Shown here: in pieces, positions 10,707 through 45,163 of the stretch | How positions within the stretch are numbered: position 1 is the stretch's first letter | Layout: the number at the start of each line of letters is the position of its first letter | Source: Alphaproteobacteria bacterium | GTDB taxonomy: Bacteria; Pseudomonadota; Alphaproteobacteria; Micavibrionales; Micavibrionaceae | Direction of reading: 5' to 3' | Length of the DNA stretch: 64,000 nucleotides | NCBI GenBank assembly: GCA_017999645.1 | Contig: JAGNLJ010000007.1 | Coordinates: 207 to 64,206 of the forward strand | Notes under the pieces: generated by a model | The model's database searches: none | Told to the model about the DNA's origin: nothing | Seen by the model: only the letters and a program-made list of their open reading frames with translations | Position numbers and translations under genes: made by a program

Positions 10707-10725
10707 AGATTTTATGCCTGGCAGT

Positions 10726-27473: not shown

Positions 27474-27489
27474 GTCTTCCAAAAAGTCA

Positions 27490-27507: not shown

Positions 27508-27537
27508 CTTTGTAATATTTATATGCGGTTTGAACGA

Positions 27538-30103: not shown

Positions 30104-30243
30104 GCTTTTAATATAACATTTTTTCACGAAAGCAATAAAAATATTTTAGGTTTTCCGCGAAAAATTTGCGGCGCCTCTTAAGGAACTTTTAAGGTCGCCG
30201 GGGCCGGGTTGAAATCTACCCGGGAGAGGCCTATAGAACAGGT

Positions 30244-31344
30244 ATGACGCTGCGCCTCGAGCTGCCCCGCTGGTACGATCTCCACGCCCATTTCCGGCAA
30301 GGGCCTCTCATGAAGGCGCTGGTTGCCGATCACCTGGCGATGGGCTGCGCGGGCATCCTCGCGATGCCGAACACGAAGCCTCCAGTCTCCAAAGTTAACA
30401 AGAAGGACCCCGGCGAAGGCTGGAGCATCGAGGAATACCTCCAGATGCTGCGCAAGGCGGGCGGCTCGAGATTTACCGACATTATAGTGCCTCTCTATCT
30501 GACGAAGGACACAACGCCTGCCATGATTGAGGCGGGGGCCAGATCAGGCCTTTTGCGCGCTGCAAAATATTACCCCCCGCACGGCACCACCGGGGCCGAG
30601 CAGGGCGCGCCCTTTCAGACCTATATAGACAATGGCGTTTTTAAAGCCATGGAGCAGGCCGGGGTGGTGCTGAATATCCATGGCGAGGAGCACGGGCTGG
30701 ACGCTGTAAAGTACTTCGGCAAGACCAATGCCGAGGAGATCTTTTACAAAGAACGTCTACCTCACGCGGTCGACAAATTCCCTAAGCTCAAAATCGTCGG
30801 TGAGCACATTACCACCCGGGTGGCTGCCGAATTTATCGAGGCCGGGCCCTCTACGTTGGCCGCCACGGTCACTCCGCAGCATCTTATCTATACGGTCGGG
30901 CATTTGCTGAAGGGTCTTAAATACCACCTCTACTGCTTGCCGCTTCTTAAATACGAAGAAGATAGGCTGGCGCTCTGGGCGGAAGTGACGGCTGCCGACA
31001 ACACCAAGTTCTTCGCCGGGACCGACAGCGCCCCGCATGTTAAGAAATTAACGGAATGTGGCTGTGCGGCGGGTTGCTATACCGGCGGCGTCGCGCCGCA
31101 GCTTTACATTCAGGCCTTCGAGAAGGCGGGCATCAATATGGGCAGCGCGGCAGGCGTCCAGATGTTCAAAAAATTCCTGTGCACCAACGGCCCGGCTTTT
31201 TACGGCCTTCCCGTATCGAAAGAGACTTTCGTTCTCGAGAAGGTCGAGACGGAAGTGAAAGTCGGAAAGTCGTGCGTTGTGCCCCTGCCGCTCGGTGCGG
31301 CGGCTGACGGTGAAAAAGCCACACTTCACTGGCGCGTGGCCTAG
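30244..31344 (+). CDS. pyrC: Dihydroorotase (E. coli-type class II)
   Basis: DLHAHFRQG, AMPNTKPPV and FFAGTDSAPH parallel E. coli PyrC motifs. Confidence 0.9.
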   Translation: MTLRLELPRWYDLHAHFRQGPLMKALVADHLAMGCAGILAMPNTKPPVSKVNKKDPGEGWSIEEYLQMLRKAGGSRFTDIIVPLYLTKDTTPAMIEAGARSGLLRAAKYYPPHGTTGAEQGAPFQTYIDNGVFKAMEQAGVVLNIHGEEHGLDAVKYFGKTNAEEIFYKERLPHAVDKFPKLKIVGEHITTRVAAEFIEAGPSTLAATVTPQHLIYTVGHLLKGLKYHLYCLPLLKYEEDRLALWAEVTAADNTKFFAGTDSAPHVKKLTECGCAAGCYTGGVAPQLYIQAFEKAGINMGSAAGVQMFKKFLCTNGPAFYGLPVSKETFVLEKVETEVKVGKSCVVPLPLGAAADGEKATLHWRVA

Positions 31345-34289
31345 CTCGCCATTTTCCGGCTTTCCTGCAGCAATGCCGCGCGTGTCGTTTCGAAAATGGC
31401 CGTCATATCACTGAGCTTTTCCTTGAGCATTTCAGGCGGGCAATTTTCATCGTTGGCGGCCTGTTCCATGTCTTTGGCGAGATCAGAGAGTGTGGCCGCA
31501 CCCATCCTGCGGCTTGCGGATTTAATTGTGTGGGCGGGACGAATAGCGCCCTTGATGATCCCGGTTTCGAGCGCGGTTTTGATTTCCTGCATATAGCTCG
31601 TCACATCCTCAATATAATAGGAGAGGATGGAGGTATATTTATCTTTGAGCACTTCATGCGATTCGATGACGGCGGCGATGTCCAGTACAGCGTTGGTGGA
31701 AACTGTAGACGGCACCGTTATTTCGACATACTCCTCGACGTAAGGAGGGGATGTGCGGCCATTGACCCAGGTAAAGACTTTCTCCCGAAGGTCATTCGTG
31801 CGCACCGGCTTGGAAATGTAATCGTCCATCCCGGCATCCAGACAGCGCTGGCGGTCGCCCTTCATGGCGTTGGCCGTCAGAGCGATGATCGGCAGATCGG
31901 CCCGGATCGACCCGGCTTTTTTGAGATCGCAGATTTTCCGGGTGGCTTCGAACCCGTCCATGAGCGGCATCTGGCAATCCATCAGGACGAGGTCGAAATC
32001 TCCGGTATCAACGGCTTTCAGGGCTTCCTGGCCGTTCGAGGCAATGGTGATGACGCAGCCAAGCTGCTCGAGCACGTCCTGCGCGAAGGCCTGGTTGATA
32101 CGGCTGTCTTCAGCCAGCAGGACTTTAACGCCGTCGAGGCGGACAGGCGATTCCTTGCTGTCCTGCCCGATGCCGTATGTGTCCACCCGGATCAGGCTGT
32201 CGGTTTCGCCGCCTCGATATTTGCTCCAGACAACGGCGAGCGTTTCGATCAGCGCCTGTGTTGTGATGGGTTTGGCGATGTAGGACGAAAAGCCTTTGCG
32301 TGCAAGATTGTCGGAAGTCATGGAAGGCGTTCCCGCCGACGTCAGCATAATAAGGCATGTATTGGCGAAGGCAGGCTCATCATTGATGGCGCGGGCCAGC
32401 ATCTCGCCGTTCATGCCGGGCAGCAGGTAATCGATGATCACCATTTTATACGGGTCACTCATGGCCGCCGCTTCGTGCATCGTCTCAAGCGCTTCTTCAC
32501 CGCTGAAACAGGTAGCGCAACGCATGCCGGCGAATGTGAGCTGCTCGGTCATGAGCGTATGAATAACCAGGAGGTCGTCGACAATCAAAACTTTTACGTC
32601 TTTCAGTACCGGCGGCCGAATGGGTGCCTGGGTTTCCTTGGCGTTGCGCGTGAGCGGCAGGGTGAAGGTGAAGGTCGAGCCTTTGCCCGGCTCGCTCTGT
32701 AGTGTGATTTTACCGCCCATCATTTCAACGAGACGTTTGCAGATCGAAAGCCCGAGTCCCGTGCCCCCGAAATCGCGGGTAGTGGAAGAGTCCGCCTGCA
32801 CGAATTTTTCAAATATCTTCTCATGCGCTTCCGCCGCTATGCCGATGCCGCTGTCTTCTACGCTGAAGACAAGATTGACTTTGTCGGGTTGCGGATTGCT
32901 TTTGTCCTCGCGCACGGAAACGACAACGTAGCCTTTTTCGGTGAATTTGATTGCATTGTTGATAAGATTGCTCAAAGTCTGGCGTACTCGCACAGGGTCG
33001 GCGTAAACAAATTGCTCGCTGCCCGGAACATAACGCACGGCAAGTTCCAGCGCCTTTTCCCGCGCCTTCGGCGCATAAAGTGCGCATGTGTCATCTACAA
33101 CCTGCAGCATGTTGGTCGGGACAGGGTCTAGCACCATTTTGTCCGCCTCGATTCTGGAGAAATCGAGAATGTCTTCGATGATATTCAGCAGCGTTTCGCC
33201 CGAGCTTATGATGGTTTTTGTATAGCCGCGTTGTTCAGGCCCCAGCGGCGTTTGCATCAGAAGTTCCGCCATGCCGAGCACGCCGCTCATGGGGGAACGG
33301 ATTTCGTGGCTCATGGTCGCGAGAAATTCATTCTTCAGCCTGTTGGCTTCTTCGGCGCGGAATTGAGCCTCGCGCAGTTGCTGCATGTTAAAGCTCATCT
33401 GGCGAAGATAATAGGAAGCCAAAAGCGTAAGAACAGAAAGTGCCGAAAATAAAATGTAAGGGTAATAATTATGGTGTGATTCCAGAAAAGGAGTGGTCGG
33501 TAAAAAATTAAGACGAAGTGCCCTGTTTCCATCCAGTTTTATAAAATTGGAAGCATTATAAAAATTGCTGGATACGCCGGGCTCTCTTGTTTCATAAATG
33601 CGCATGGCTTGTTCGTCTGCGTGAACGAGGTCGATGGTAACGTGGTTATAAGGCACCAAGCCGCCTGCGCCGACCGCCATTTCCGCTATTTTGCCAATAT
33701 TAATGATGCCCACGGAGAAACCGAATAATTCGGCATCTTCATTTTTATAAACCGGATGAATTAGAAGAATGTGATTGCTGCCTAGAAAATTATTGTGTTC
33801 ATCATTCCTGAAGACGGAAAGATTATTGAAGAAAGAAACGCGGCTTTTAGAATTCGCCGCCTGCTGGAGCATTGAATTGAATTCTTGGTCTTTGGAAATT
33901 TCAAGTTTATGGTCGCTGTGCGATTTCCATGGGCTGGTGGAAGAGATGGCATAAAGCGGAATATTTTGATCGTTTTCTGACGGCATAACCCAGGCCAGAA
34001 TTTCATAATTCTCGTTACGCTTCAGGAATGGCGATGTAAAAGTATGGAATTCGTCGGGATCAACATATTTTGAAGCTAAAAAATAATTTCCGATATCTTC
34101 AAGCATCTGGATATGCGTAACAACGGCATTTTCTATCAAGGATAAGTTTTTAGCCGAAATTCTTTCGAAGGCTTCCCTGCTATCGGTGCTGGTAGATTTG
34201 TATATCTCAACCGAAAACATCGCCGAGATAATCATCCCTACGAAAAAAACTATAAAATGAAGGTATTTGCCGTGAGAAAGTCGGTGCAT
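31341..34289 (-). CDS. Hybrid sensor histidine kinase (periplasmic sensor-TM-HisKA-HATPase-REC-REC-Hpt)
   Basis: H-box FLATMSHEIRSPMSG and G-box GGTGLGLSICKRLVEMMGG. Two receiver domains (IIDYLLPGMNG and LMDCQMPLMDG). The C-terminal Hpt has PAHTIKSASRRMGA. Confidence 0.9.
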   Translation of the reverse strand: MHRLSHGKYLHFIVFFVGMIISAMFSVEIYKSTSTDSREAFERISAKNLSLIENAVVTHIQMLEDIGNYFLASKYVDPDEFHTFTSPFLKRNENYEILAWVMPSENDQNIPLYAISSTSPWKSHSDHKLEISKDQEFNSMLQQAANSKSRVSFFNNLSVFRNDEHNNFLGSNHILLIHPVYKNEDAELFGFSVGIINIGKIAEMAVGAGGLVPYNHVTIDLVHADEQAMRIYETREPGVSSNFYNASNFIKLDGNRALRLNFLPTTPFLESHHNYYPYILFSALSVLTLLASYYLRQMSFNMQQLREAQFRAEEANRLKNEFLATMSHEIRSPMSGVLGMAELLMQTPLGPEQRGYTKTIISSGETLLNIIEDILDFSRIEADKMVLDPVPTNMLQVVDDTCALYAPKAREKALELAVRYVPGSEQFVYADPVRVRQTLSNLINNAIKFTEKGYVVVSVREDKSNPQPDKVNLVFSVEDSGIGIAAEAHEKIFEKFVQADSSTTRDFGGTGLGLSICKRLVEMMGGKITLQSEPGKGSTFTFTLPLTRNAKETQAPIRPPVLKDVKVLIVDDLLVIHTLMTEQLTFAGMRCATCFSGEEALETMHEAAAMSDPYKMVIIDYLLPGMNGEMLARAINDEPAFANTCLIMLTSAGTPSMTSDNLARKGFSSYIAKPITTQALIETLAVVWSKYRGGETDSLIRVDTYGIGQDSKESPVRLDGVKVLLAEDSRINQAFAQDVLEQLGCVITIASNGQEALKAVDTGDFDLVLMDCQMPLMDGFEATRKICDLKKAGSIRADLPIIALTANAMKGDRQRCLDAGMDDYISKPVRTNDLREKVFTWVNGRTSPPYVEEYVEITVPSTVSTNAVLDIAAVIESHEVLKDKYTSILSYYIEDVTSYMQEIKTALETGIIKGAIRPAHTIKSASRRMGAATLSDLAKDMEQAANDENCPPEMLKEKLSDMTAIFETTRAALLQESRKMAS

Positions 34290-34290
34290 T

Positions 34291-35244
34291 TTACCATTCC
34301 AGTTGCGGGCTGCCGCCGACGAAGGCGATGGCCTGGTTGCCCTGTTGATTGTAGGTCAGCTTGTCGAAGCTGACGGCATTGGCCTGTGCGATGCCGCGCC
34401 CATGGTTGTCCCCCGCGCGCGCCGGCTCAATCGTCATATAACGTTTCCAGTTAAAGCCATTGCCCTGGTCAGTGATGATTGCGTAGAAGCCATCTTCCTT
34501 ACGTGTGATGATGAGTTCAGCCGTGCGGCTTCCGTAGGAATCAAGTTGTTGCCTGCGCTCAATTTCGGCTAGCCACGTACCATTATCCAGCAACTGACTT
34601 TTACGCTCATAGCCAATTTCGAGATTGCCGTGTTCGACGGCATTGGTCAGGAGTTCAGCAAGTCCCAAGAGAACGCGCTCGGGATCGGGAAAGCAATGTG
34701 CTGTGAACGCGGCGAGGCATTCCGCCTCGTTAAGTGTGCGGAAATTGAATTTGCAGGTTCGGATCAGATTGAAGCTGGTGTGATGGCGTTTCAGTTCATC
34801 ACTCAAAGTTCTGTTCTGTTGCGCTTCGCGTGTCGCGGCCAGAAGAACCGAGCGCAACACATCTTCATTCACCGGCTTTGCAAGATAGTAGAACACGCCG
34901 GCCTCAAGCCCTTCCTGCATCTGTTTAACGGTCGAGGCGCCGGTTACCATGATGACAGGGATTTTGCGCAAAGCCGGGTCATCTTTAATCAAACGAACGG
35001 CGCTGAGGCCATCCATGACCGGCATCAGGCGGTCCATCAGAACGACGTCGATGCCGCCCTTCGCGCGGCGCAGGATTTCCAGCGCCTGCTGTCCGTCGGC
35101 GGCCTCTTCCATCATGTGGCCCATCTGCCTGATCTGCTCGCCAAGGAAGGCGCGCTCCAGCCTGTCATCCTCAACGGCGAGAATAGTTAGCGGGCGATCC
35201 TTGGCGCTTAGGAAAGGGATAACGTTTTCGGCAAGTTGTTTCAT
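34291..35244 (-). CDS. Response-regulator receiver fused to an RsbW/SpoIIAB-like ATPase (Ser kinase/anti-sigma-type HATPase)
   Basis: REC domain (ILAVEDD...VLMDRLMPVMDG...K). C-terminal N-box ELLTNAVEHGN, G1 DQGNGF and G2 GRGI. Confidence 0.75.
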   Translation of the reverse strand: MKQLAENVIPFLSAKDRPLTILAVEDDRLERAFLGEQIRQMGHMMEEAADGQQALEILRRAKGGIDVVLMDRLMPVMDGLSAVRLIKDDPALRKIPVIMVTGASTVKQMQEGLEAGVFYYLAKPVNEDVLRSVLLAATREAQQNRTLSDELKRHHTSFNLIRTCKFNFRTLNEAECLAAFTAHCFPDPERVLLGLAELLTNAVEHGNLEIGYERKSQLLDNGTWLAEIERRQQLDSYGSRTAELIITRKEDGFYAIITDQGNGFNWKRYMTIEPARAGDNHGRGIAQANAVSFDKLTYNQQGNQAIAFVGGSPQLEW

Positions 35245-35253
35245 AAATTCTCC

Positions 35254-36576
35254 TTATCGTTCCGTGAAGGCGGTTTTCATCGCCGTGTGAACCGGCTTGA
35301 GCAGGTATTGCAGGATGGTTTTTTCGCCGGTGATGATTTCTGCCATGGCGGTCATGCCGGGCACGACAAGGTTGCGCTGGTCATGGCCGACGTGGTTTTG
35401 TGAAAGATCGACCCGGCCACGATAATAGCGCTCGCCATTTTCACTGGTAAAAGTCGTAGCCGAGATCTGGTCCAGTTGGCCGGTGATGAAACCGTAGCGT
35501 GAGAAATCGAAGCTGCTGAATTTCACCTGTACCTTCTGGCCGGTTTTCAGGTGGCCGATATGTTGCGGCGGGATTTTTACCTCGACGATCATTTTTTCAT
35601 CCATTGGCACGATTTCCATCAAGGTTTGACCCGGCTGCGCGACGGCACCGACCGTATTGATCGCAAGACCTTTGACGAGGCCGCGAGCGGGAGAGCGGAC
35701 TTCAAGCCTGCCCACGCGGTTCTTCAGTTTTTCGATCAGTTCGGTATTCTGCGCTTTTTCGGCGATGACCTGGTCGATGCGCTCATAGGCATCGTCCTGC
35801 TGGCTGGCACCCAGAGAGCTCAGGCGGTTTTCGAATTCACTGATTTCCGCTCTTGCGCCGCCGATGCGGTTTTTAAGCTGTTTAACTTCGCCGTCGATTT
35901 CATTGAGGCGCTGTTTTGTCTCAAGAAACTGCACGTCTGAGGTATAGCCCTTGCGGTTAAGTTCCGCGCGGCGGTCATACAGGTCTTTCGTAATAGTATA
36001 ATTGCTGCGCGCCGTATCAAGCTCGGCCTGCAAGGCTGAAATCATATTTTTCTTCTGCTTGATCTGTTCCTGGATGATTTTCTGTTCTTCGCTGCGGGCC
36101 TGCACCATGGAATCGAAGAATGATTTCTGATCCTTGATCAGGGCAGCGTCTTTTATCTCCGCATCCGAAAATTTAGGCTCGCGGCTTTCCGCGAAAGCGC
36201 GGAGACGTTCTTCCTGCATGGCAAGGCTGGTTTGCTTGCTGAGGGCGCGGTTCAGGTCATCCTGCGATCCGGCGCCATCGAGAACCATCAGTACCTGACC
36301 TTTCTCGACCTGCTGGCCTTCATGGATCTTGATCTCGCGGACGATGCCACCTTCAAGGTGCTGGACGACCTGCTGGAATCCTTGCGGTACTACTTCGCCC
36401 GGCGTGCGTGCGACTTCGTTGATGTTCGTCACGCCCGCCCACGCGATGAAGGCAAAAATTGCAAGGCTGGTTGTCACCATCGTCAGTTTGATGATGGTGG
36501 GGTTTGCCGCTTCCTCAAGCTGGACAGCCTGGGAAAGATAGCGGGTTTGTTTGTCGTGCGTTTGTGATCTGGTCAT
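35254..36576 (-). CDS. HlyD-family type I secretion membrane-fusion protein
   Basis: N-terminal TM segment, lipoyl-like hairpin (GGIVREIKIHEGQQVEKGQVLMVLD), long coiled coil and beta-barrel C-terminus. AGGAGG lies 7 nt upstream of the ATG at 36576. Confidence 0.9.
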   Translation of the reverse strand: MTRSQTHDKQTRYLSQAVQLEEAANPTIIKLTMVTTSLAIFAFIAWAGVTNINEVARTPGEVVPQGFQQVVQHLEGGIVREIKIHEGQQVEKGQVLMVLDGAGSQDDLNRALSKQTSLAMQEERLRAFAESREPKFSDAEIKDAALIKDQKSFFDSMVQARSEEQKIIQEQIKQKKNMISALQAELDTARSNYTITKDLYDRRAELNRKGYTSDVQFLETKQRLNEIDGEVKQLKNRIGGARAEISEFENRLSSLGASQQDDAYERIDQVIAEKAQNTELIEKLKNRVGRLEVRSPARGLVKGLAINTVGAVAQPGQTLMEIVPMDEKMIVEVKIPPQHIGHLKTGQKVQVKFSSFDFSRYGFITGQLDQISATTFTSENGERYYRGRVDLSQNHVGHDQRNLVVPGMTAMAEIITGEKTILQYLLKPVHTAMKTAFTER

Positions 36577-38756
36577 CACGCGGCCTCCTGTTTGTTTATG
36601 GTTTCTGTAACTGCTTCACGCGCACCGGCCATCGGTGTTTCGCCGCGGCGCAAGACAACAAGCGTGTCTGCAAGATTGATGAAGTCTTCGCGGTAACTGA
36701 TCATAATGCAGGTGCGCTTGCCTTTCGTGTGGGCGAGATAATCCTTGAGATTTTTCCCCGCGCGGCTGCTGAGCAGAGCGTTGGGAAGCTCATCGATAAG
36801 CATAATAGGTGCGCTGTGGAGATAGGCGCGCGCCAGCGAAAGCCGCGTAGCAAGGCTGGAAGGCAGCGCATCGGCACCGTAACGACCGATAATGGTGCCC
36901 AGCCCGGCGGGCATGGCGGCGATCTCGTTCCAGACATCGGCCATCTGTAATGCTTTCTCGATGTCTTCCTGGCTCGCCATCGGATTGCCGAGACGGAGAT
37001 TTTCAAAAATCGTGCCCTGGAAGAAATCGGCCTGCTGCGGGATATAGGCGATCTGGCGCCGAAGGTCCGGCGCATCCAGTTGGCGGATATCGAAGCCGTC
37101 AATCTGCACGGCACCGGAAGTGGTTTTGTACAATCCTTTGATCAGTTTCAGCAAAGTTGTTTTGCCGGAACCGTTCTCACCCGTGACGATGACGAAATCG
37201 CCGGGGCGTGCGTCGAAGGTCAGGTTGTTGAAGACAGGATCGGTGTCTTCACCGTAATTAATTCCGGCGTTTTTAAAACTGACCTGGCCGCGCATTTTCG
37301 GCACGCGCGCAGCGGTGACAGCCTCCATCGCCTCAGTGTCTATATCCATGAGCTTGTTGACCTGCATGATGCTGTTGCGCAGCTGTTCAAGGCGCGGGAT
37401 CATTGTGCACAGGCTGTAGAACGGCATCAGTACGCGCCAGACGAGGATCATTGTTGCGACCAGTGCACCCGTACTCATCATGCCTGCCCAGATCATGTGA
37501 ACTCCGAAGCCGACCGTGGCAACGGCGGCAATCAGTGTAATCGCATGGGCCATCGTCTCCGCCATCATGCCAAGCCAGTTCAGGCGGAAATGTGCAAGCA
37601 TTTCGCGGCCTGAAAGCTCGCGGAACTTGGCCTGCCATGTTTTCGAAAGGCCGTTGCCACGCACGCCCTGGATTTTTTCAAAAGTCTCAATCGCGAATTG
37701 CTGGCGTGCCGAACTGGCTTTTGCAGCGAGACGGATGGTAATTTTCACTTTTTTGTGAATGCCCCACAATAGCAACCCATAACAGGCAACCATCGCCAGC
37801 GGCACAAGAACGAGCGGCCCGGCAACGGCATAAATGGCAAGCGCGGCAATGGCAACAAAGGGAAGTTCCAGCATCGACAGGAACACCGATCCGCTGAAGA
37901 AATCGCGTACGGATTCGAATGTTTTAATACGGGCGATCTGCGCGGCGACGGACGCTCGCTCAATCAGGGAGGGAGGAAGGCCGATCAGGTGGGCAAATAT
38001 TTTATTACTGACAATATTGTCCATGCGCGCGGCAAGCCATGACAGCCCCTGCGAACGGATGCGGCGGAGAACCCATTCGAATCCAATTGCAATGCACGCG
38101 CCGACAGCGAGCATCGGCAGGATTTCAGGCGCACCTGCTGCGATAACGCGGTCGTAAATAAGCATAATGAAAAGCGGCGTCGAAAGCGCAATAACATTCA
38201 GCATGAAGCAGCCCAGCAGAATCTGGCCGAATGTACCGCGGAAGCGGCTCAGCAGGGCAGAGAACCAGCTTTTGCCTGAACCTGCGCGCATAAATTTGGA
38301 AGTGACGACGCGGTTTTCATCGTAGCGCTCGAATATCCACGCTTCGCCGGTTTCAGCCGCCATATGGTCCTTTGATATTTTTTTGATATGGCCGTTGGCG
38401 TAAACTTTAAAATGCCCGCCTTTTTGTTCAAGAATGATAACAGGATGACCGCTGTCGCCGATGAACAGGCAGGGCAGCAGGCGCGGGTCTATATCTCTTA
38501 ATTGTGTTGTCACAGGGCGTGCAAAATAACCGAGATGCGCGAAGGTATTCAACGTCGATTGCTGCGTCATCTTGCCAGGGTCATAAGGCAACGCTTCAAG
38601 AAGACGGTAAGTCCTGCAGCGCGGCTCAAGTGCGAGCAGGAGCACGCAGAGGCCGCTCTCCCATTGATTTTTTTCGATGAAATTGTCACGGCCTGATTGC
38701 TGCAGGACGCCCATCATCTGTGAAACGGGATTTACTTCGGCGGTAGTATCGGTCAT
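36576..38756 (-). CDS. T1SS-type ABC exporter subunit A (N-terminal C39-like domain plus TMD plus NBD)
   Basis: 726 aa. Q-x5-C (NQWESGLC) and a downstream GHPVIIL resemble the C39 Gln/Cys/His arrangement. Walker A GENGSGKTT, Walker B IMLIDE, degenerate signature LPSSLATR, and Tyr in place of the H-loop His (ISYRE). Confidence 0.9.
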   Translation of the reverse strand: MTDTTAEVNPVSQMMGVLQQSGRDNFIEKNQWESGLCVLLLALEPRCRTYRLLEALPYDPGKMTQQSTLNTFAHLGYFARPVTTQLRDIDPRLLPCLFIGDSGHPVIILEQKGGHFKVYANGHIKKISKDHMAAETGEAWIFERYDENRVVTSKFMRAGSGKSWFSALLSRFRGTFGQILLGCFMLNVIALSTPLFIMLIYDRVIAAGAPEILPMLAVGACIAIGFEWVLRRIRSQGLSWLAARMDNIVSNKIFAHLIGLPPSLIERASVAAQIARIKTFESVRDFFSGSVFLSMLELPFVAIAALAIYAVAGPLVLVPLAMVACYGLLLWGIHKKVKITIRLAAKASSARQQFAIETFEKIQGVRGNGLSKTWQAKFRELSGREMLAHFRLNWLGMMAETMAHAITLIAAVATVGFGVHMIWAGMMSTGALVATMILVWRVLMPFYSLCTMIPRLEQLRNSIMQVNKLMDIDTEAMEAVTAARVPKMRGQVSFKNAGINYGEDTDPVFNNLTFDARPGDFVIVTGENGSGKTTLLKLIKGLYKTTSGAVQIDGFDIRQLDAPDLRRQIAYIPQQADFFQGTIFENLRLGNPMASQEDIEKALQMADVWNEIAAMPAGLGTIIGRYGADALPSSLATRLSLARAYLHSAPIMLIDELPNALLSSRAGKNLKDYLAHTKGKRTCIMISYREDFINLADTLVVLRRGETPMAGAREAVTETINKQEAA

Positions 38757-40459
38757 ATGCGGAGCTCCGTGTACGGCTTTACTTGATTGGTGCTGTAGGA
38801 TTCGTCGGTTTCAATCAGCTTGCCGTTTTCAAGGCGGCAGAAGCGCGTTGCCAGTCCACGAATATTGCAATCGTCAGAAACCAGGACCATGCTCGCACGT
38901 CCTTTCAGCCGGGCGAGAAGGCTGTAAACGAGATTGTATCCTTCGCGATCAAGTGCGCGGTCGGCATTGTCGAAAAGGATGATGCGCGGCTTGGGTGCCA
39001 GCACGCGCGTCATGGCGATGCGCTGCTTGAGACCCGGCGGAATACTGTCGGTGTTGGTGCCTGTGAGCAACGTGTCAAAACCAGAAGGCAGGCGGGCGAT
39101 ATCGCGGTCGAGTTTCAGCAGCGCGGCAATTTCCTGTACTTCTTTTTCAGGAATCTGACCGAAGCAGGTCATGTTGTCGCGAATTGTGCCGCGGAAAATC
39201 ACACCTTCGGAACGGATCAAGCCGACATGACGGATCAAATCTTCCGAAGCGTAGCGCAGGATGTTGCGGCCATCGATATTGATAGTGCCTTTTCCGGGCG
39301 GGTAAATACCGGCAAGAAGCTGGAGAAGAAGCGTTTTGCCCGAACCATGCGCGCCGGAAAGCAGGATGCTTTCCCCGCGTTTGAGGTCGAGATCGAGATT
39401 GTCGAGCAACCAGGGCTTGTCGTCGGAATGACGGAAAGAAAGTTTTTCAATTTTGATGGTGCCTTCGCGCACAGAATTTGCATCGTTAGCGGGCGTGCCG
39501 GGATATTGCGGTGTTTCAAAAATCGCCTCGACCTTCTGGCGTGCCAGCGCGTAATCCTGGTACCTAGCCCAGAGGCCCAGCGCGCGTTGAATTGGTTGCA
39601 TCATCCGTCCGGAAAGCAAGATAGTGGCGATCAGCGCGCCTGTCGTGATATGGCCGTGCAAGGCAAACAGCGCCCCGGATACAATGACGGCGGCAACCAT
39701 GATGTGCGAGAAAACAGCGCCAGAATCAAAGGTGCCGGATGTCGCTTTTGTAACGTTGTAATTGGAAAGTGTAGAAGTTTCCTCGAGCTTCTCATAGCGG
39801 CGCGCAAAATTATTCTCCAGCGCGAAGGATTTGATCGTATGAACGCCATCCAGTCCCTCAATCAGGAAGTTATAACGTTCATCGTCCGTTTCATCGCGCT
39901 CTTTCAGTGCACTGCGCAATCTCTGGCCCTGCGCCAGCGAAACAATCGTAAAAACCATCAGCACGGCGCAGGGTACGGCGGCGAGAGGACCCGCGATATA
40001 AATGATAAGGCCGAGAAAAACTGGCACGAAAATCATTTCGAACAAAACCGTCAGCGCATAGCCGTTATAAAAATCCTTCAGCTTGGTCACTGCGCTCATG
40101 CGGTGAAGATGTTCGCCGATGCCGTAAGGGCCGAGGCGCGAAAGATCGGCCTCAAGAACATGATTCATCGCCGAGCAGGAAAGACGGTGTTCGTAAGCCG
40201 CCCCCGCCCAGCCCATGATATAGGCACGGGCCAGGCGCAGGGTCGCTTCCAGGGCAACGGCCAGTCCCACGCCTGTAATCAGGACAGGTAGCGTGCCGGA
40301 GCCGGGGTTGGGAAGGATCCGGTCATAGACCTGAAGGGTCATAACCGGCAGGGCAAGAGAGAGAATGTTGATGGCGAGGGTTGAAAGCAGGAGACTGCCC
40401 GTGCTCACGCTGTAGCCGTCAGGGCGAAGCAAATCTTTGTTGTGTTTGTGCTGGCTCAT
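38753..40459 (-). CDS. T1SS-type ABC exporter subunit B (TMD plus NBD, no peptidase domain, catalytic Glu missing)
   Basis: 568 aa. Walker A GAHGSGKT (39332-39355), signature-like PPGLKQRIAMTRV (39020-39040), Walker B IILFDNAD (38960-38983, Asn where the catalytic Glu is expected) and D-loop ALD. Confidence 0.88.
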   Translation of the reverse strand: MSQHKHNKDLLRPDGYSVSTGSLLLSTLAINILSLALPVMTLQVYDRILPNPGSGTLPVLITGVGLAVALEATLRLARAYIMGWAGAAYEHRLSCSAMNHVLEADLSRLGPYGIGEHLHRMSAVTKLKDFYNGYALTVLFEMIFVPVFLGLIIYIAGPLAAVPCAVLMVFTIVSLAQGQRLRSALKERDETDDERYNFLIEGLDGVHTIKSFALENNFARRYEKLEETSTLSNYNVTKATSGTFDSGAVFSHIMVAAVIVSGALFALHGHITTGALIATILLSGRMMQPIQRALGLWARYQDYALARQKVEAIFETPQYPGTPANDANSVREGTIKIEKLSFRHSDDKPWLLDNLDLDLKRGESILLSGAHGSGKTLLLQLLAGIYPPGKGTINIDGRNILRYASEDLIRHVGLIRSEGVIFRGTIRDNMTCFGQIPEKEVQEIAALLKLDRDIARLPSGFDTLLTGTNTDSIPPGLKQRIAMTRVLAPKPRIILFDNADRALDREGYNLVYSLLARLKGRASMVLVSDDCNIRGLATRFCRLENGKLIETDESYSTNQVKPYTELRI

Positions 40460-42405
40460 CCGAACAGCCCTCCGCCGCCGAATAATCCGCCGCCGCCGTG
40501 GTGATCGTTACCCAGCAGGCTTCCAAGGCCTTCCGCAACATCGCCCACAGGTTCAGGCAGGACGCCGCCAAGCGCATCGCCAAGCCCGCCGCCGATGATG
40601 TCACCGGCATCGGGCAGGATATTTTCCGGCCACGAAAGCGGGCCTTCACCGCCGCCAACGCCACCGGCGATATCGCCAAGGCCGCTGCCGGGCAGGCTGC
40701 CGATCAAATCAAGCGCAGCATCTATATCGAGATCGATATCACCGACAATATCCTCGACGGGATCGAGTTCGATATCAGCCAGATCAATATCAGGCGTATC
40801 AATGCCAAGCGGATCGAGATCTATGTCGAGGGCGATATCGGTATCGCCTGCGCCATTATCGGTTTCATAGTTGCCGAGAAGATCGAGATCAAAATCCGTC
40901 GCAACGCCGCCGTCGTTATCTAGTCCGGGCAGTAAGCCGTCGATAACATCGCCCCCTATATCTTCGAGAAATTCACCCGCTTCAGCGAGAAGACTGTCCT
41001 CGCCTGTGCCGCCAGCAAAATTGTCAACCAAACCGTCGGCTGTATTGCCGAGCAGGTCAGTCGCCACGCCTAGATCGATGTCGATATCGCCGACAATATC
41101 CTCAACCGGGTCGAGACCGATATTGAGTGTCGAATCAAGAAGTCCGTTATCCACGATATCAAGATCGAGGCCGAGATTGAGATCTGTGTCACCAGCACTG
41201 TGGTCCGGAGCGAACAGGCCGAGGCCGATGTCACCGAGTATGTCGACATCGCCGACAATATCCTCAACCGGGTTGAAGACGACATCCACAATGCCGTCGA
41301 TAAAATGCGCGTCACCGAGCAACGGCAATTCAATACCCAGGCCCAGATCCGTATCGCCAGGACGATGATCGTTATTACCATCCAGAATACTCAGAATGGA
41401 ATGCAGATCGACCAGCACAAGATTTTCTGTGCCCAGGATGGGGTCAAGGAGATTTGTAACAGGCGAAAGATCAATCACCTCATTGACAACATTAAAAACG
41501 GAATCGCCCGAGAGAATGTCGAGATCCAGATTCGTGACTTCGCCAAGGATCGTGTCGAGATGAACCGTAAGCCCGTCGCCGCCGAATATATTATTGAAGA
41601 AGTTATTGACGATATTGGTGACGTTATTCGTGATTTCGGTCAGGTTCAGGATATCAACGATATTTGTAATTTCCGTGATGGTCGTCGTGATAAGATTCGT
41701 GACGTCGCCCAGATCGATAATCGTCAGATCGCCAAGATCAATATCTCCAAGCTTGATAATGATGTCTCCAATGTCGATGTCGAGGAAATTGTCGATATCG
41801 ATATTGATGATATTGTGGCCGCCTTCGCCATTTGTTCCGTTAAGGCCGTCCGCGCCGTCGACACCGTTAAAGCCTTCGCCGTCGATTCCGTTAGTCGGTA
41901 TGAAGGGGGTGCCGCCGCCACCATTAAATACAAAACCGGAAGCTGCGAGCGGCAGAACTGTCGAAGCTGTGTAGCCGCCATTGTTACCTGCGCCAATGTC
42001 ACTAAAAGAAGTCGCATCTTCGGCAACATTGCGATCGGTGCTGATATCGTTGTTATTGGAATCGAGCGCGAACGGGCTGCTGGCGTTTGTGAATCCTGCC
42101 GCGAATGAAATCGCCGAGGCAATACCGCCTGAAGCTCCGGGCGCTTCGCCTGTGATAATGAATGGATCGGTGAGGGCCATAGCCTCGTTGGTCTGGCCAG
42201 CCTGCATCATAAGAAAATTCAGGTTACCGGAACCGAACAGGCTCTCGGTGACGCCGTCGAGATCTTCGGCGCTGTACTGATCAGCATCAAGCTTCGTGAC
42301 TGGCACGCTCATCTCAAAATAATCCGTGGCCGCAGATGAATTTTGCGGTTCAAGGCTGAGAGCGAGACCGCCCGAAGAGGGCGAATTGATCGGTGACTTT
42401 TCCAT
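40456..42405 (-). CDS. Hyper-acidic Asp/Gly/Ile/Leu/Asn/Thr repeat protein, presumed cargo of the adjacent exporter
   Basis: 649 aa. AGGAGG lies 8 nt upstream of the ATG, and the stop overlaps the next start (ATGA). About a fifth of residues are Asp/Glu, with only about 6 Lys/Arg and no Cys. It contains 3x GDTD(L/I)xL and 3x PVEDIVGD(I/V)D, and ends GGGGLFGGGGLFG. Confidence 0.8.
   Translation of the reverse strand: MEKSPINSPSSGGLALSLEPQNSSAATDYFEMSVPVTKLDADQYSAEDLDGVTESLFGSGNLNFLMMQAGQTNEAMALTDPFIITGEAPGASGGIASAISFAAGFTNASSPFALDSNNNDISTDRNVAEDATSFSDIGAGNNGGYTASTVLPLAASGFVFNGGGGTPFIPTNGIDGEGFNGVDGADGLNGTNGEGGHNIINIDIDNFLDIDIGDIIIKLGDIDLGDLTIIDLGDVTNLITTTITEITNIVDILNLTEITNNVTNIVNNFFNNIFGGDGLTVHLDTILGEVTNLDLDILSGDSVFNVVNEVIDLSPVTNLLDPILGTENLVLVDLHSILSILDGNNDHRPGDTDLGLGIELPLLGDAHFIDGIVDVVFNPVEDIVGDVDILGDIGLGLFAPDHSAGDTDLNLGLDLDIVDNGLLDSTLNIGLDPVEDIVGDIDIDLGVATDLLGNTADGLVDNFAGGTGEDSLLAEAGEFLEDIGGDVIDGLLPGLDNDGGVATDFDLDLLGNYETDNGAGDTDIALDIDLDPLGIDTPDIDLADIELDPVEDIVGDIDLDIDAALDLIGSLPGSGLGDIAGGVGGGEGPLSWPENILPDAGDIIGGGLGDALGGVLPEPVGDVAEGLGSLLGNDHHGGGGLFGGGGLFG
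40731..41278 (-). repeat. Three roughly 35-bp near-identical coding repeats (PVEDIVGDIDI units)
   Basis: GTCGA(T/C)ATCGCCGACAATATCCTCAACCGGGT occurs at 41080-41115 and 41242-41278. The variant GATATCACCGACAATATCCTCGACGGGAT lies at 40731-40770. Confidence 0.85.
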
Positions 42406-42593
42406 TGGGTTTTCCTCCTGGTACTCAGTAACGCATCATAAAAATTTACAACCATTAGTTTAATAACGTGTAAAAATTAGATGGCATTATTGTCATTGAA
42501 TACAGGCGTATTTGGCTAAAATTGAGAAAAGCAGGCGCGCTTGTATTTTCTTGAATATAAACTTATAGTTGTATATCTTCCGCAACGGAAGAC

Positions 42594-44006
42594 ATGGGTA
42601 TTCAGAACCGCCAATCCGGGGGAAATAACGTGCGCCGCTTCATATTTTTTTGCCTGCCATTTCTTATTTACGGGATCCCGCCAGCCATAGCGGAGGATTC
42701 GTCTCAGTCCGGGAACGCTACGCTCGAGCAGGTGCTCAGGCATGTCTATGTGAACAGCCCGGAACTTGAGGCGTCTCGTGCTGAATTACGGGCTTTGCAT
42801 GAACTTCATCCGCAGGCGCTGGCAGGTTGGAAACCGACAGCTGAAGTGGAAACCAGTGTCTATGCTACCGATATCGATAGTAGCAATTTTGCGAATGCCG
42901 ACGGCGCAACCACCAAGGACATTAATGTCAGCATCAACCAGCCTTTATATCGCGGCGGTAAGACGACGGCGGAAACGGAACGGTCTTACAGTCTTATCAA
43001 AGCAGGCTATGCGCGGTTTTTACAAAAAGAGCAGGAGGTTTTCCTGCGCGCGACGACAGCGTATATGGATGTTCTGCGCGACCGCACATTATTGAATCTG
43101 CGCATTAACAATGAAAAAATCCTGGGCGAAGAACTGGCGGCTGTGCGCGAACGTCATAACGCCGGCGATGTCACGCAAACCGATGTGCGGCAGGCCGAAG
43201 CTCGTCTTGCGCGTGCACGGGCCGAGCATGTCGCGGCCTCCGGGCAGCTGGAAAGCAGCCGCGCAGCGTTTGAGGCAATCACAGGCTTTGCGCCGAATGA
43301 AACATTATATGTACCCGGCACGTCGTTCCAGTTCCCGTCGGTCATCGAAGAAATGGTCAGCCGCGCCGAAACGGAAAACCCGGCGCTTGCCATATCTGTG
43401 AACCAGCATGAAGCCGCCCAGAATGATATCGACGCGCGTTTCAGCGAATTGCTGCCGCAGGTCTCGGCATTTGCTTCCTACAACAAGCAATTCGATCCCC
43501 AGCCGGGCGTGATTGATGAATCCGAAACGAAAACGATCGGTGTGCGTGCCAAGATTCCACTCTATGAGGCCGGCTTTGTCCGTTCGCGGGTGCGCGAAGC
43601 CAAAAGCATCGCCAGCCAGCGCAACCAGGAAGTGAATGAACAACGCCGCCTGATCCGGAGAGACATAACCGATAACTGGAAAACACTGGAATCGGCGCGT
43701 GCAGAGATCGCGGCGCGGAACGCGGAGACCGATGCTGCGCGCGCGGCGCTGGAAGGCGTGCGCGAGGAAGCGAAAATGGGTGAGCGCACGGTCCTCGATG
43801 TTCTGGACGCCGATCAGGATGTCCTGAGCGCCGAGGCGGCGCTGGCCCGCGCGCATCATGACGAGGTCATCGCATCCTATGCTCTGGCGGCGGCGATTGG
43901 CTGGTTGCTACCTGAAAAAATGGGCATGGCAGACATTGCGTACCAGCCCGGGCCGCATTACCGCGCGATGAGCAGGAAAATATTCAGCATGAACGCGGAA
44001 AAGTAA
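42594..44006 (+). CDS. tolC: TolC-family outer-membrane channel
   Basis: 470 aa with a signal peptide. Tandem TolC repeats are present, with LEQVLRHVYVNSPELEASRAEL and a second ...AEIAARNAETDAARAALEGVREE. Confidence 0.9.
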   Translation: MGIQNRQSGGNNVRRFIFFCLPFLIYGIPPAIAEDSSQSGNATLEQVLRHVYVNSPELEASRAELRALHELHPQALAGWKPTAEVETSVYATDIDSSNFANADGATTKDINVSINQPLYRGGKTTAETERSYSLIKAGYARFLQKEQEVFLRATTAYMDVLRDRTLLNLRINNEKILGEELAAVRERHNAGDVTQTDVRQAEARLARARAEHVAASGQLESSRAAFEAITGFAPNETLYVPGTSFQFPSVIEEMVSRAETENPALAISVNQHEAAQNDIDARFSELLPQVSAFASYNKQFDPQPGVIDESETKTIGVRAKIPLYEAGFVRSRVREAKSIASQRNQEVNEQRRLIRRDITDNWKTLESARAEIAARNAETDAARAALEGVREEAKMGERTVLDVLDADQDVLSAEAALARAHHDEVIASYALAAAIGWLLPEKMGMADIAYQPGPHYRAMSRKIFSMNAEK

Positions 44007-44082
44007 GGTTTCCGGCCTTTTCAAGGGCTTTTGTCGGCAGGAAAACTCGTTTAGAATCGTCTAATTCATGGAGGCGATTTAT

Positions 44083-45150
44083 ATGACAAGGTTATTGGCA
44101 GTTCTTGCGCTTTTTGCATTGTTGAGTGGGGCGCAGGCTCAGGCAGAAGCCCCGACGCTCGAACAGATCCGTGCCGACCTCAACCTCCAGCTTCGGACCG
44201 ATAACCCGCCCGCACCCATTGAGATTCTGAACGTTTCTTATGATCCTACGCGCGAGCTTTATACCGATTATAATGCAGCCTTCAAAAAATTCTGGAAAGA
44301 AAAATCCGGGCAGGACGTCGAGATCAAGCAATCGCATGGCGGCTCCGGCAAGCAGGCGAGGGCTGTTATATCCGGATTGAAAGCGGATGTCGTCACGCTC
44401 GCGCTGGCTTATGACATCGACAGGATTGCGGTCGAGAAGAAAGACAGCATGCCCGCAAACTGGCAGGCAAGACTGCCGAACAACAGCGCGCCTTATACTT
44501 CGACGATTGTGTTCCTGGTGCGTAAGGGTAATCCGAAGAACATTAAAGACTGGGGCGATCTCGTGAAAGATGATGTCCAGATTGTTACTCCTAACCCGAA
44601 AACCTCGGGCGGTGCGCGGTGGAATTACCTCGCGGCATGGGCCTATGCCGAAAAAGCTTTCGGCGGCGATGAGGCGAAAGTGAAGGAATTTGTCGGCAAG
44701 CTGTTTAAAAACGTGCCGGTTCTCGACTCCGGCGCTCGTGGTTCCACCATGACCTTTGTACAGCGCAATATCGGCGATGTTCTGCTGGCATGGGAAAATG
44801 AAGCGTTTCTGGCAATCAATGAACTCGGTCCCGATAAATTTGAGATCGTCATGCCCTCTATCAGCATCCTGGCCGAGCCTCCTGTCGCAATGGTCGATGG
44901 CAACGCCATTAACAAAAACGCAATAGAGGTTGCCCGCTTTTATCTCAGCTATCTTTATTCAAAAGAAGGGCAGGAGCTGGTGGCGAAGCATTATTTCCGT
45001 CCCGTAGATCCCGTAGTCATGGCAACTAAACGTGAAATGTTCCCGGAAATTGAAATGGTGACAATCGACAAGGATTTCGGCGGCTGGGCGGAAACGCAGA
45101 AAATCCATTTCGATGACGGCGCTATATTCGACCAGATCTACAAACCGTAA
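44083..45150 (+). CDS. cysP: Sulfate/thiosulfate ABC transporter substrate-binding protein
   Basis: [23 protein letters not shown]...[24 protein letters not shown] matches the Sbp/CysP family. GGAGG lies 8 nt upstream of the ATG at 44083. Confidence 0.9.
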
Positions 45151-45163
45151 ACGGATTTAAATA

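Follow-up and report, generated by a model that had tools for sequence, protein, structure and literature searches.

How could a type I secretion system (T1SS) be driven by two unlike ATP-binding cassette (ABC) subunits, and what would place the genes of a phosphorelay in the same tightly packed block? These questions are raised by a locus on contig JAGNLJ010000007.1 of an alphaproteobacterial assembly assigned to the Micavibrionaceae (GCA_017999645.1, positions 207 to 64,206 of the forward strand). Within this 64,000-nucleotide (nt) stretch, referred to here as the window and used for all coordinates below, the listing of open reading frames (ORFs) shows six minus-strand ORFs running from 42405 down to 31341, with a TolC gene diverging from them on the plus strand. 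In the usual account, type I secretion is the simplest export route of Gram-negative bacteria, consisting of one homodimeric ABC protein, an adaptor and TolC under promoter-level regulation. The locus as a whole is best explained, with a confidence somewhat better than even, as a dedicated T1SS cassette inherited as a unit with its own phosphorelay, an architecture that sequence comparisons indicate to be well supported and fairly widespread. Its genes and the intergenic region are as follows (aa, amino acids).

40456–42405, minus strand: cargo gene, 649 aa; no Pfam or NCBIfam match; first gene of the block in all loci compared below
38753–40459, minus strand: short ABC half-transporter, 568 aa, without N-domain; TIGR03375 match from model position 154
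36576–38756, minus strand: long ABC half-transporter, 726 aa, with an N-terminal domain; TIGR03375, 457 bits over residues 31–723
35254–36579, minus strand: HlyD-family adaptor, 441 aa from GTG or 440 aa from ATG; TIGR01843 and Pfam HlyD_3
34291–35244, minus strand: RECW, a REC-GHKL protein, 317 aa; Response_reg and HATPase_c_2
31341–34289, minus strand: membrane hybrid histidine kinase, 982 aa; Pfam HisKA, HATPase_c, two REC domains and Hpt
42594–44006, plus strand: TolC-family outer-membrane channel, 470 aa; TIGR01844 and two Pfam OEP matches
42406–42593, no strand: divergent TolC/cargo intergenic region, 188 nt, AT-rich, from sequence reading

An initial annotation of this DNA, made from the sequence alone, had already placed the six ORFs, their junctions and the divergent TolC gene, and all of these were reproduced from the ORF listing and by direct reading of the sequence. 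ATGA overlaps join the cargo gene to the short ABC gene (40456–59) and the short to the long ABC gene (38753–56). At the long ABC/HlyD junction the sequence GTGATG, containing TGATG (36574–79), produces an overlap of 4 nt if HlyD begins at GTG and of 1 nt if it begins at the ATG at 36576, the latter being the start chosen in gene calls on identical metagenome loci. RECW follows HlyD after a 9-nt gap containing GGAG (35245–53, TAA-GGAGAATTT-ATG), and the kinase gene follows RECW after a single nucleotide (34290, TAA-A-ATG). It is these overlaps that suggest co-transcription of the six genes. Promoter and terminator consensus scans of positions 30000–44200 remained at shuffle level (14 against 10.1±2.5, and 17 against 16.6±3.8) and give no evidence for or against internal transcripts, and an Rfam scan of the whole window returned zero matches. 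The block is flanked by unrelated housekeeping genes, with a pyrC-like gene beyond the kinase and a sulfate ABC importer after TolC. The kinase stop codon overlaps by 4 nt (31341–31344) that of the convergent pyrC-like dihydroorotase gene (plus strand, 30244–31344), leaving no space for a terminator between them.

The T1SS-type operon layout that the annotation had proposed (an upstream cargo, two different ABCs, HlyD, a REC-RsbW-like protein and a hybrid kinase) is borne out by Pfam and NCBIfam models and by the loci of relatives. Its domain calls hold for the ABCs, HlyD, TolC, the REC-RsbW-like protein and the hybrid kinase, and only the 'C39-like' label of the N-domain is reduced to a weak match. 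Among the models it had named, HlyD_3 matched, HATPase_c_2 did so at its cutoff, and TIGR03375 proved the best model for both ABCs at scores below cutoff. Lack of synteny between the signalling genes and the exporter in relatives had been named as grounds for abandoning the claim; the two are in fact syntenic. So had an existing description of the block, and the literature searched holds no functional description of it, its proteins carrying generic public names such as 'ATP-binding cassette domain-containing protein', 'LapB' and 'response regulator'.

Relatives were collected by a degenerate-pattern scan with the cargo alignment over one genome per GTDB species, which yielded 23 loci; these were annotated by phmmer with seven window proteins, and two metagenome loci (L036 and L037) were added. 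Wherever a locus is long enough to include them, the cargo, short ABC, long ABC and HlyD genes adjoin one another in this order; the median junctions are −4 nt (cargo/short ABC), −4 nt (short/long ABC) and −2.5 nt (long ABC/HlyD), followed by +6 nt (HlyD/W gene, W denoting the RsbW-type GHKL domain) and +12.5 nt at the next junction. A W gene comes after HlyD in 20 of the 22 loci that extend past HlyD (19 of 20 genome-derived loci, and L036), at a distance of 30 nt or less in 18 of 19 measured. In L036, from a metagenome-assembled genome (MAG) labelled Micavibrio aeruginosavorus, the RECW homologue that follows HlyD is 65% identical to that of the window. Four loci (L023, L026, L028 and L031) carry a W gene without REC, consisting of the C-terminal GHKL part only, and two of the 22 informative loci (L015 and L037) have no W gene. 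An orthologous long hybrid kinase directly follows RECW in at least 11 loci, an Hpt-containing hybrid kinase is found in most, and TolC diverges upstream of cargo in 12 or more of the related loci. Since 23 species-level genomes repeat this gene order and its tight junctions, the arrangement is beyond chance, and by this comparison the block appears as a conserved, tightly packed unit, with TolC alongside in many loci. Most carriers are MAGs of alphaproteobacteria, either Micavibrio-like or unclassified, and some of them bear the label Bdellovibrionales or Rickettsiales; the isolate Aquimixticola soesokkakensis CECT 8620 (L029, contig NZ_FWFS01000015.1; Rhodobacteraceae by label) is also a carrier. 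Identical copies of the window proteins are present in several metagenome assemblies and an NCBI MAG.

Variants of the block were also seen. In the two loci without a W gene (L015:17257–20280 and L037:15296–18127), HlyD is followed by a 275–305-aa protein, with a C-terminal REC domain and an N-terminal half to which no domain is assigned, and then by a short kinase of HisKA-HATPase-REC-Hpt layout. The same pair of C-terminal-REC protein and short kinase is present besides the REC-GHKL gene in L017, L019 and L022. Two short-ABC paralogues, P0244 and P0341, are both listed on one 2,184,493-bp JGI contig, so that one genome may hold both variants of the cassette. In L030 (positions 4001–12889, Candidatus Endolissoclinum sp.) the cargo homologue reaches 2,962 aa, or three- to fivefold the usual length, and the short and long ABC genes come after it as in the other loci.

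Both ABC proteins combine Pfam ABC_membrane and ABC_tran domains, and the LssB-type T1SS model TIGR03375 is the best NCBIfam model for each, scoring 336 bits (E=1e-100) for the short and 457 bits (E=1e-137) for the long subunit against a cutoff of 693. Both are thus clearly related to the model but constitute a divergent subfamily, short of the curated cutoff for an HlyB/PrtD/LssB-type permease-ATPase; a homologue search with the short ABC added only close orthologues with generic names and no further context. Their motifs were read from an alignment to solved ABCB-type nucleotide-binding domains (NBDs) together with 23 short-ABC and 21 long-ABC orthologues (24 and 22 sequences with those of the window).

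N-domain: none in the short ABC; present in the long ABC
Walker A: kept in 22/24 short ABCs (window GAHGSGKT); kept in the long ABC (window GENGSGKT), often GKA in orthologues
Q-loop: Gln absent in all short ABCs (window Ser); Gln or Lys in the long ABC (window Q)
Walker B: D-N in ~20/24 short ABCs; I-D-E in the long ABC
H-loop: Asp or Glu in most short ABCs, never His (window Asp); Tyr in 17/21 and His in 4 long ABCs (window Tyr)
Signature: conserved [IV]PPGLKQR in the short ABC (window IPPGL); poorly conserved, LTSSL-like in the long ABC (window LPSSL)
D-loop: kept in the short ABC; lost in the long ABC

The LSGGQ signature is found in neither subunit. The hallmarks of an exporter with one degenerate site are all present, namely two unlike and adjacent half-transporters, loss of the Walker B Glu and H-loop His in one of them, and a non-canonical signature in its partner. 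The short ABC is degenerate, and probably non-hydrolysing, across the family. In a head-to-tail heterodimer the dead site would then combine the Walker motifs of the short subunit with the decayed signature of the long one, and the candidate working site would pair the long-subunit Walker motifs with the conserved short-subunit signature. An asymmetric heteromer of the two ABCs is the most economical reading, because a short-ABC homodimer would be inactive at both sites, and because the two genes are strictly adjacent and joined by 4-nt overlaps.

The long subunit differs further by its additional N-terminal domain.

38262–38756, minus strand: N-terminal domain of the long ABC, residues 1–165; TIGR03375 positions 2–140

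Taken alone, residues 31–165 of this domain are collinear with TIGR03375 positions 2–140 at E=8.5e-5, orthologues giving values from 9e-4 to 0.2. Its Cys37, within a WE-x-CLC helix, is mostly conserved among long-ABC orthologues, and the position of the putative C39 His varies between E, D, K and H; the C39-like residue pattern was judged by eye. The domain is probably a catalytically degenerate C39-like domain and not a peptidase.

The protein that this transporter would export belongs to a family of 193 homologues found, all of them 'hypothetical' and none with a functional name. The window member is extremely acidic (91 Asp and 29 Glu against 3 Lys and 2 Arg, or 18.5% D+E and 0.8% K+R, with a pI of ~4) and contains no Cys. 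An alignment of 26 family sequences resolves it into a variable stretch of ~30 residues at the N-terminus and the following conserved elements.

42181–42303, minus strand: N-terminal signature motif, residues 35–75, PVTKLDADQYSAEDLDGVTESLFGSGNLNFLMMQAGQTN; 13 invariant columns of the alignment
41818–41889, minus strand: collagen-like Gly-X-Y run, residues ~173–196, GIDGEGFNGVDGADGLNGTNGEGG; Gly columns 184/187/190/193 near-invariant
40606–41385, minus strand: Asp-rich region with three 'AGDTDL...LDPVEDIVGDIDLDL' modules; columns conserved family-wide
40459–40638, minus strand: conserved C-terminus, W-x-EN-x-LPD...LP-x-P-x-G-x-V-AEGLG...GGLFG-stop; from the family alignment

The near-invariant consensus of the N-terminal motif is P-V-x-KLDADQY-x-AEDLDGVTESLFGSGNLNFL-x-MQAGQTN. 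An exhaustive HMMER search with a 50-residue form of this motif among 1.84 billion representatives returned 195 clusters at 50% identity, in all but one of which it lies within the first ~110 residues, typically at ~20–80; full-length carriers are mostly ~450–1,160 aa, accompanied by shorter fragments. The exception, P0437 (2,604 aa, ten partial motif matches), was rejected as a spurious match to an unrelated Big_2/fn3 repeat protein matched through 'GGSGN'. The Gly-X-Y run, preceded by a low-complexity Ser/Gly/Ala stretch, varies in length among members, and the Pfam Collagen model is reached by 7/26 and an SclB-like model by 11/26 of them. Besides the Asp-rich modules, with their three copies of PVEDIVGDxD (from nt 41271, 41109 and 40761), there are segments rich in Ile, Asp, Thr and Asn. 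Tandem repeats at the DNA level are confined, within the cargo gene, to trivial short arrays. RTX repeats were looked for in the cargo family without a Pfam match, its members showing 0–3 isolated GGxGxD occurrences, at most chance matches. There is no hydrophobic segment and the N-terminus is polar by inspection, features consistent with a protein that lacks a Sec signal and would be exported independently of Sec. At the other end, W592, E594, L616/P617/P619, E625/G626 and the terminal GGLFG are conserved, and this C-terminus is presumed to be the type I secretion signal. These features together fit a T1SS substrate that is unfolded inside the cell and folds outside it, probably with Ca2+ and as an oligomer. 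Both the N-terminal motif and the C-terminus are unchanged in loci without the GHKL gene or without its REC domain, and they are tied, on this evidence, to the invariant transporter and not to the signalling part. A role for the N-terminal motif as a STAS-like phospho-loop for the W kinase was considered and rejected as unsupported, the motif being only ~40 residues long, unchanged in loci lacking W, and unlike the SpoIIAA loop in its spacing.

Turning to the signalling pair, the kinase has a transmembrane (TM) segment at residues 7–31, a periplasmic region at ~32–275, a probable second TM segment at 275–295, HisKA-HATPase at 319–547, two receivers (REC1 and REC2) and an Hpt domain at 888–956. 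All elements of a hybrid phosphorelay kinase are in place, from the HisKA H-box and HATPase_c to the receiver Asp and Hpt His, and the phospho-sites His328 (H-box), Asp620 (REC1), Asp771 (REC2) and His920 (Hpt) are intact. The periplasmic region of ~245 residues gives a CHASE signal of 17.5 bits here and of 26.5 bits (cutoff 25) in the L025 orthologue, and the sensor domain differs among loci, being CHASE-like, PAS or a short form. RECW is composed of two domains.

34846–35184, minus strand: REC domain of RECW, phospho-acceptor Asp71; Pfam Response_reg, 85 bits
34294–34797, minus strand: RsbW/SpoIIAB-type GHKL (Bergerat-fold) domain of RECW (the W domain); HATPase_c_2, 27.4 bits, exactly at cutoff

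Among orthologues the REC residues D26/D27, D71, T101 and K123 are conserved and the GHKL boxes are invariant (N-box ELLTNAVEHG, G1 DQGNGF, G2 HGRGI); the family of the C-terminal domain, PF13581, is carried by most RECW homologues. More distant relatives of the W domain occur in partner-switch modules with STAS proteins and REC-PP2C phosphatases, beside chemotaxis or flagellar genes. The only full-length structural match of RECW is PDB 9QIH (E=5e-14; E=1.4e-6 for the GHKL part alone), the REC-Bergerat protein LvrC of Leptospira, which was crystallised with ADP-Mg2+, is phosphorylated by LvrB, and has been put forward as an anti-sigma factor gated by its REC domain (PMC13269768). Like LvrC, RECW fuses a REC domain with an intact phospho-acceptor pocket to a GHKL domain of RsbW/SpoIIAB type. 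The pair also exists outside the cassette: on chromid AZO_p4 of Azospirillum lipoferum 4B (L038, 458036–462493) a 1,140-aa gene, annotated 'response regulator' and presumed to encode a hybrid kinase, precedes a REC-GHKL homologue (36% identity, 92% coverage), with no T1SS nearby and a diguanylate cyclase gene converging on the two. This T1SS-free pair marks kinase and REC-GHKL protein as a portable module that the present lineage has joined to a secretion operon, and it speaks for a generic signalling output rather than a gate specific to the T1SS.

Both remaining exporter components match their models above cutoff. HlyD scores 382 bits against TIGR01843 (cutoff 208.65) and has one N-terminal TM segment (residues 27–53), and TolC scores 266 bits against TIGR01844 (cutoff 225.15). 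Between the divergent TolC and cargo genes lie two mutually inverted 16-mers, given here on the plus strand as TACAACCATTAGTTTA (42447–42462) and TAAACTTATAGTTGTA (42558–42573), which are identical at 14/16 positions as reverse complements and are located 42–57 nt before the cargo start and 21–36 nt before the TolC start, respectively; they may be shared operator or promoter elements. In ~10 relatives a divergent OmpR-type regulator (REC and Trans_reg_C) is encoded between TolC and cargo, and it is specifically the loci with such a regulator that carry GAAAC[AT] repeats, spaced ~11 or 21 nt apart, upstream of the cargo gene. These were found at 14/22 loci against 15–24% in controls, as pairs or triplets 20–125 nt before the cargo gene in L009, L011, L013, L016, L019, L021, L022, L024 and L025, and look like a response-regulator binding site. 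A palindrome-like AAC-N-GTT element related to the inverted 16-mers is present upstream of the cargo gene at 11/22 loci against 17–18% in controls, which is weak evidence for such an element. The window has neither the repeats nor an OmpR-type regulator at the TolC/cargo position. An OmpR-type regulator is encoded elsewhere in the window (55031–55771, minus strand), adjoining a 762-aa REC-containing kinase-like ORF (56534–58822, minus strand). It is 41% identical to the cassette regulator of L025, two locus-linked regulators being 44% identical to each other, and it could be either a displaced transcriptional partner of the cassette or part of an unrelated two-component system.

How might such a cassette work? 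In the mechanism proposed here the cargo, being acidic and free of Cys, would be exported unfolded and C-terminus first, with its ...AEGLG...GGLFG end as the signal; outside the cell its Asp-rich repeats would bind Ca2+ and fold, and the collagen-like run would promote trimerisation, giving a fibrous or adhesive surface protein. In the asymmetric ABC heterodimer the long subunit would contribute the Walker B Glu and, in its degenerate C39-like domain, a module for handling the cargo, perhaps by contact with the invariant N-terminal cargo motif, and the short subunit would bind ATP without hydrolysing it and lend its better conserved signature to the single working site. The hybrid kinase would sense a periplasmic cue through its CHASE-like domain and pass phosphate from His328 through Asp to His920 of Hpt and on to Asp71 of RECW. 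In many relatives phosphate would probably also reach the adjacent OmpR-type regulator, a relay that probably has two outputs there, one a DNA-binding regulator and the other the REC-GHKL protein. RECW would constitute the protein–protein output, sequestering or Ser-phosphorylating a partner encoded elsewhere (a sigma factor or STAS-like antagonist) and in this way setting the timing of cassette expression, possibly together with a wider regulon. Such a partner-switch or transcriptional route for RECW, with a sigma- or STAS-like protein encoded at another site as its target, is suggested by analogy with LvrC, RsbW and SpoIIAB; it is the likeliest of the routes considered, and we hold it tentatively, with a confidence short of even.

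Several observations weigh against parts of this scheme. The ATP site designated as working is itself atypical, with its H-loop Tyr, its IPPGL signature and, in many orthologues, a Walker A ending in GKA, and the transporter may consequently not cycle as a normal ABC exporter does. The C39 affinity of the N-domain is weakly supported: the Pfam C39 model, which the initial annotation had put forward as a check, finds no match in it even at E<=10, a profile of the N-domain family retrieved nothing significant from the PDB (best relevant entry 3B79, E=0.94), and a single-sequence AlphaFold2 (AF2) model of the domain was uninformative (pLDDT 39). Equally uninformative was the AF2 model that the 26-sequence alignment gave for the cargo (mean pLDDT 38), a low value that is compatible with an intracellularly unfolded substrate but is not evidence for one, and Ca2+-driven folding is an analogy, as RTX repeats are absent. 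As to the relay, phmmer searches with STAS and REC-PP2C queries, covering the window and the 23 genome-derived loci, matched only REC parts and found no sigma, STAS or PP2C gene; the gene tables of the window locus and L036 likewise contain none, and that of L037 only a 91-aa sigma-70 region-4 fragment ~4.5 kb downstream. Canonical RsbW/SpoIIAB genes adjoin those of their partners, and with none found here the partner-switch model is left without its partners. A second transcriptional output also seems redundant wherever an OmpR-type regulator is already in control.

These last points lend interest to a direct action of RECW on the exporter or its cargo, which we consider less likely than the partner-switch route and on the whole rather doubtful. 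Under this alternative the GHKL domain, switched by (de)phosphorylation of REC, would bind or Ser/Thr-phosphorylate a cytoplasmic part of the T1SS or the waiting cargo, the candidate targets being the C39-like domain, an NBD, the HlyD N-terminus or the cargo itself, and export would thereby be opened or blocked. The near-obligate linkage of W to HlyD (20/22 informative loci), its retention in the four loci where REC was lost, its invariant ATP-binding boxes and the lack of a sigma, STAS or PP2C partner encoded nearby in the window, the loci or the gene tables would all suit such a role; so would the OmpR-type regulator and matching repeats, which cover transcription in many loci and free W for another job, and the atypical nucleotide sites of both ABCs, which make an extra ATP-using regulator conceivable. 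Control of type III secretion by Bordetella BtrU/V/W and the threonine-phosphorylation pathway of type VI secretion (PpkA/PppA/Fha) offer precedents. Yet L015 and L037 run the same transporter and cargo without W, the conserved cargo motifs are independent of its presence, none of the T1SS parts shows an evident STAS-like fold, all characterised relatives of W act on STAS-like proteins or sigma factors, and kinase and REC-W occur as a pair without a T1SS in Azospirillum. If true, direct gating would make RECW an export gatekeeper, licensing secretion post-translationally, for example on contact with prey or a surface, in what would be, to our knowledge, the first phosphorelay-gated type I secretion system. 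Pairs standing alone elsewhere, along with a kinase sensor domain that varies between loci and a W gene missing from two of them, might also be taken to mean that the signalling genes are mere neighbours, an independent two-component module downstream of the exporter that regulates something unrelated. We regard this as very improbable, as synteny spans Aquimixticola, a MAG titled Rickettsiales and Micavibrio-like MAGs, with W a median 6 nt past HlyD, and as REC/Hpt/kinase signalling of some form lies beside the exporter in most loci examined, a linkage not expected of unrelated genes.

On the transporter side, the competing view is that the long ABC carries an active C39 protease that cuts a cargo leader at Gly-Gly, or else that the two ABCs form independent homodimers. 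The mostly conserved Cys at the C39 catalytic position (WE-x-CLC) and the strongly conserved N-terminal cargo motif with its invariant G58-x-G60 are what a peptidase might predict, and NHLP-type systems do pair a peptidase ABC with a second ABC, their models TIGR03796/03797 giving weak matches here. Those matches amount to 184–221 bits against cutoffs of 709–853, however, the catalytic His position is not conserved, Pfam C39 finds no match, and the conserved motif at residues 35–75 does not fit the double-glycine leader consensus in its spacing. SSGG at cargo residues 10–13 is not conserved in the family alignment, and the extreme C-terminus of the cargo is conserved, as is typical of T1SS substrates. 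An active C39 peptidase with a double-Gly leader was rejected on these grounds, the His and the GG (cargo residues 12–13) both being unconserved, and independent homodimers would leave the short ABC with two dead sites; taken together this view retains hardly any probability, the least of those weighed here.

Beyond the block, a complete sulfate/thiosulfate ABC importer (44068–47903, plus strand; binding protein, two permeases and an ATPase with a TOBE domain) begins 61 nt past TolC on the same strand and is followed by a convergent MotA/MotB-like pair (47905–49543, minus strand). On the other side lies a polyamine cluster of four genes (25573–29797, minus strand), neighbours overlapping or at most 55 nt apart, that encode an Orn/Arg decarboxylase, a deoxyhypusine-synthase-like protein, a PAD_porph agmatine deiminase and a CN_hydrolase amidase; the deoxyhypusine-synthase-like gene probably encodes a homospermidine-type synthase.

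Each ingredient of the proposed cassette is known already, as T1SS with two ABCs, ABC heterodimers with a degenerate site, REC-Bergerat regulators and partner-switch kinases acting on surface processes have all been described. Their combination, a degenerate ABC heterodimer with a non-RTX collagen-like cargo and an operon-embedded kinase/REC-GHKL relay, has no description in the literature searched. An asymmetric ABC pair without a canonical signature in either subunit raises the question of how ATP drives export, and a cassette holding both a sensor kinase and an RsbW/LvrC-like switch provides a tractable genetic context for finding the targets of REC-Bergerat proteins. The non-annotated, collagen-like and Asp-rich cargo family is found for the most part in genomes that bear the Micavibrio label or lie near that genus. 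Micavibrio is a genus of epibiotic predators, and it is tempting to speculate that a regulated surface fibre bears on prey attachment. These questions are testable, as A. soesokkakensis CECT 8620 is a cultured, non-predatory carrier, and Azospirillum lipoferum is a cultured organism with the signalling pair alone.

Among known systems, the closest precedent for two ABCs is the MARTX system of Vibrio (RtxB/RtxD/RtxE with TolC), where, according to the passage of PMC3034196 summarising Boardman & Satchell 2004, both ABCs are needed for one large cargo. In both, a single operon dedicated to one cargo combines two unlike ABC genes with one HlyD-type adaptor. They differ in gene order, as the rtx operon (B-D-E) is divergent from its toxin gene and the order here is cargo, short ABC, long ABC, HlyD; in the cargo, an RTX-repeat toxin there and a protein without RTX repeats here; and in the presence here of one ABC lacking both N-domain and catalytic residues, and of signalling genes, which are not reported for rtx loci. 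An rtxC- or rtxH-like gene was likewise not noticed in the interval between the cargo and TolC genes. The separation from the MARTX type given here is by gene order and cargo. With the classical HlyB-HlyD-TolC and LssB/LssD-type systems (TIGR01846, TIGR03375, TIGR01843, TIGR01844) the cassette has in common the ABC exporter fold, HlyD and TolC proteins above their cutoffs, a probable, non-proteolytic C39-like N-domain on an ABC, and an acidic cargo, with a presumed C-terminal signal, encoded beside its transporter; it departs from them in having two unequal ABCs instead of one homodimer, sub-cutoff TIGR03375 scores, no LSGGQ, and signalling genes within the block. The initial annotation had also cited the NHLP ABC1/ABC2 cassettes as precedent, but the ABCs reach only 184–221 bits against 709–853 for TIGR03796/03797 and HlyD 55 against 156 for TIGR03794, and the features of a PCAT, a conserved C39 Cys/His dyad and a conserved double-glycine leader, are both lacking. 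In TM287/288, TmrAB and BmrCD one site of a heterodimeric ABC exporter is degenerate (PMC8277102). As in the TM287/288 type, the half-transporters here are adjacent, one lacks the catalytic Glu and H-loop His, and the partner signature at that site is non-canonical; those are stand-alone drug or peptide exporters, in contrast to the HlyD/TolC-coupled protein secretion proposed here, and the remaining site is here unusual as well (H-loop Tyr, signature IPPGL).

The cargo resembles the collagen-like proteins Scl1/Scl2 and Lcl (NF038329, NF038330, NF046116) in its short Gly-X-Y run, the matches arising only through the Gly-rich stretch; it has no LPXTG anchor, and its export route and the rest of the protein are unlike theirs. 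In Pseudomonas, display of the T1SS adhesin LapA is tied by LapD/LapG to inner-membrane signalling, and an N-terminal element matters for retention. The Lap system differs in its c-di-GMP sensing, its periplasmic protease and its single ABC (LapB), and the N-terminal motif here spans only ~40 residues; no LapD- or LapG-like gene is present among the genes adjoining the block, although no search was aimed at them. The genome paper on Micavibrio ARL-13 describes a T1SS locus of a different, RTX type.

As to the relay, no literature linking a T1SS with RsbW-type, partner-switch or REC-GHKL proteins was found, within an incomplete coverage of the literature. The HptB-HsbR-HsbA module of Pseudomonas is a partner-switching module in which a hybrid kinase/Hpt relay acts through a REC domain on an RsbW-like Ser kinase, in control of a cell-surface process, and which has a STAS antagonist and a PP2C phosphatase as domain or gene. 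REC-Bergerat regulators were described in 2026 in the LvrA-LvrB-LvrC system of Leptospira, LvrC being proposed to control hundreds of virulence genes through a sigma factor (PMC13269768). The likeness to RECW lies in the fusion of REC to a Bergerat domain and in the input, a multi-step phosphorelay headed by a hybrid kinase; sequence similarity is modest, and LvrC has no link to a secretion operon. Finally, the SypE/SypA system of Vibrio fischeri (PMC10120452, PMC4517449) includes a STAS antagonist and a PP2C phosphatase, as domain or gene, which have no counterpart in the window or the 23 loci, and it shares with the arrangement described here a hybrid kinase/Hpt relay leading to a REC-controlled RsbW-type Ser kinase in the service of a cell-surface process.

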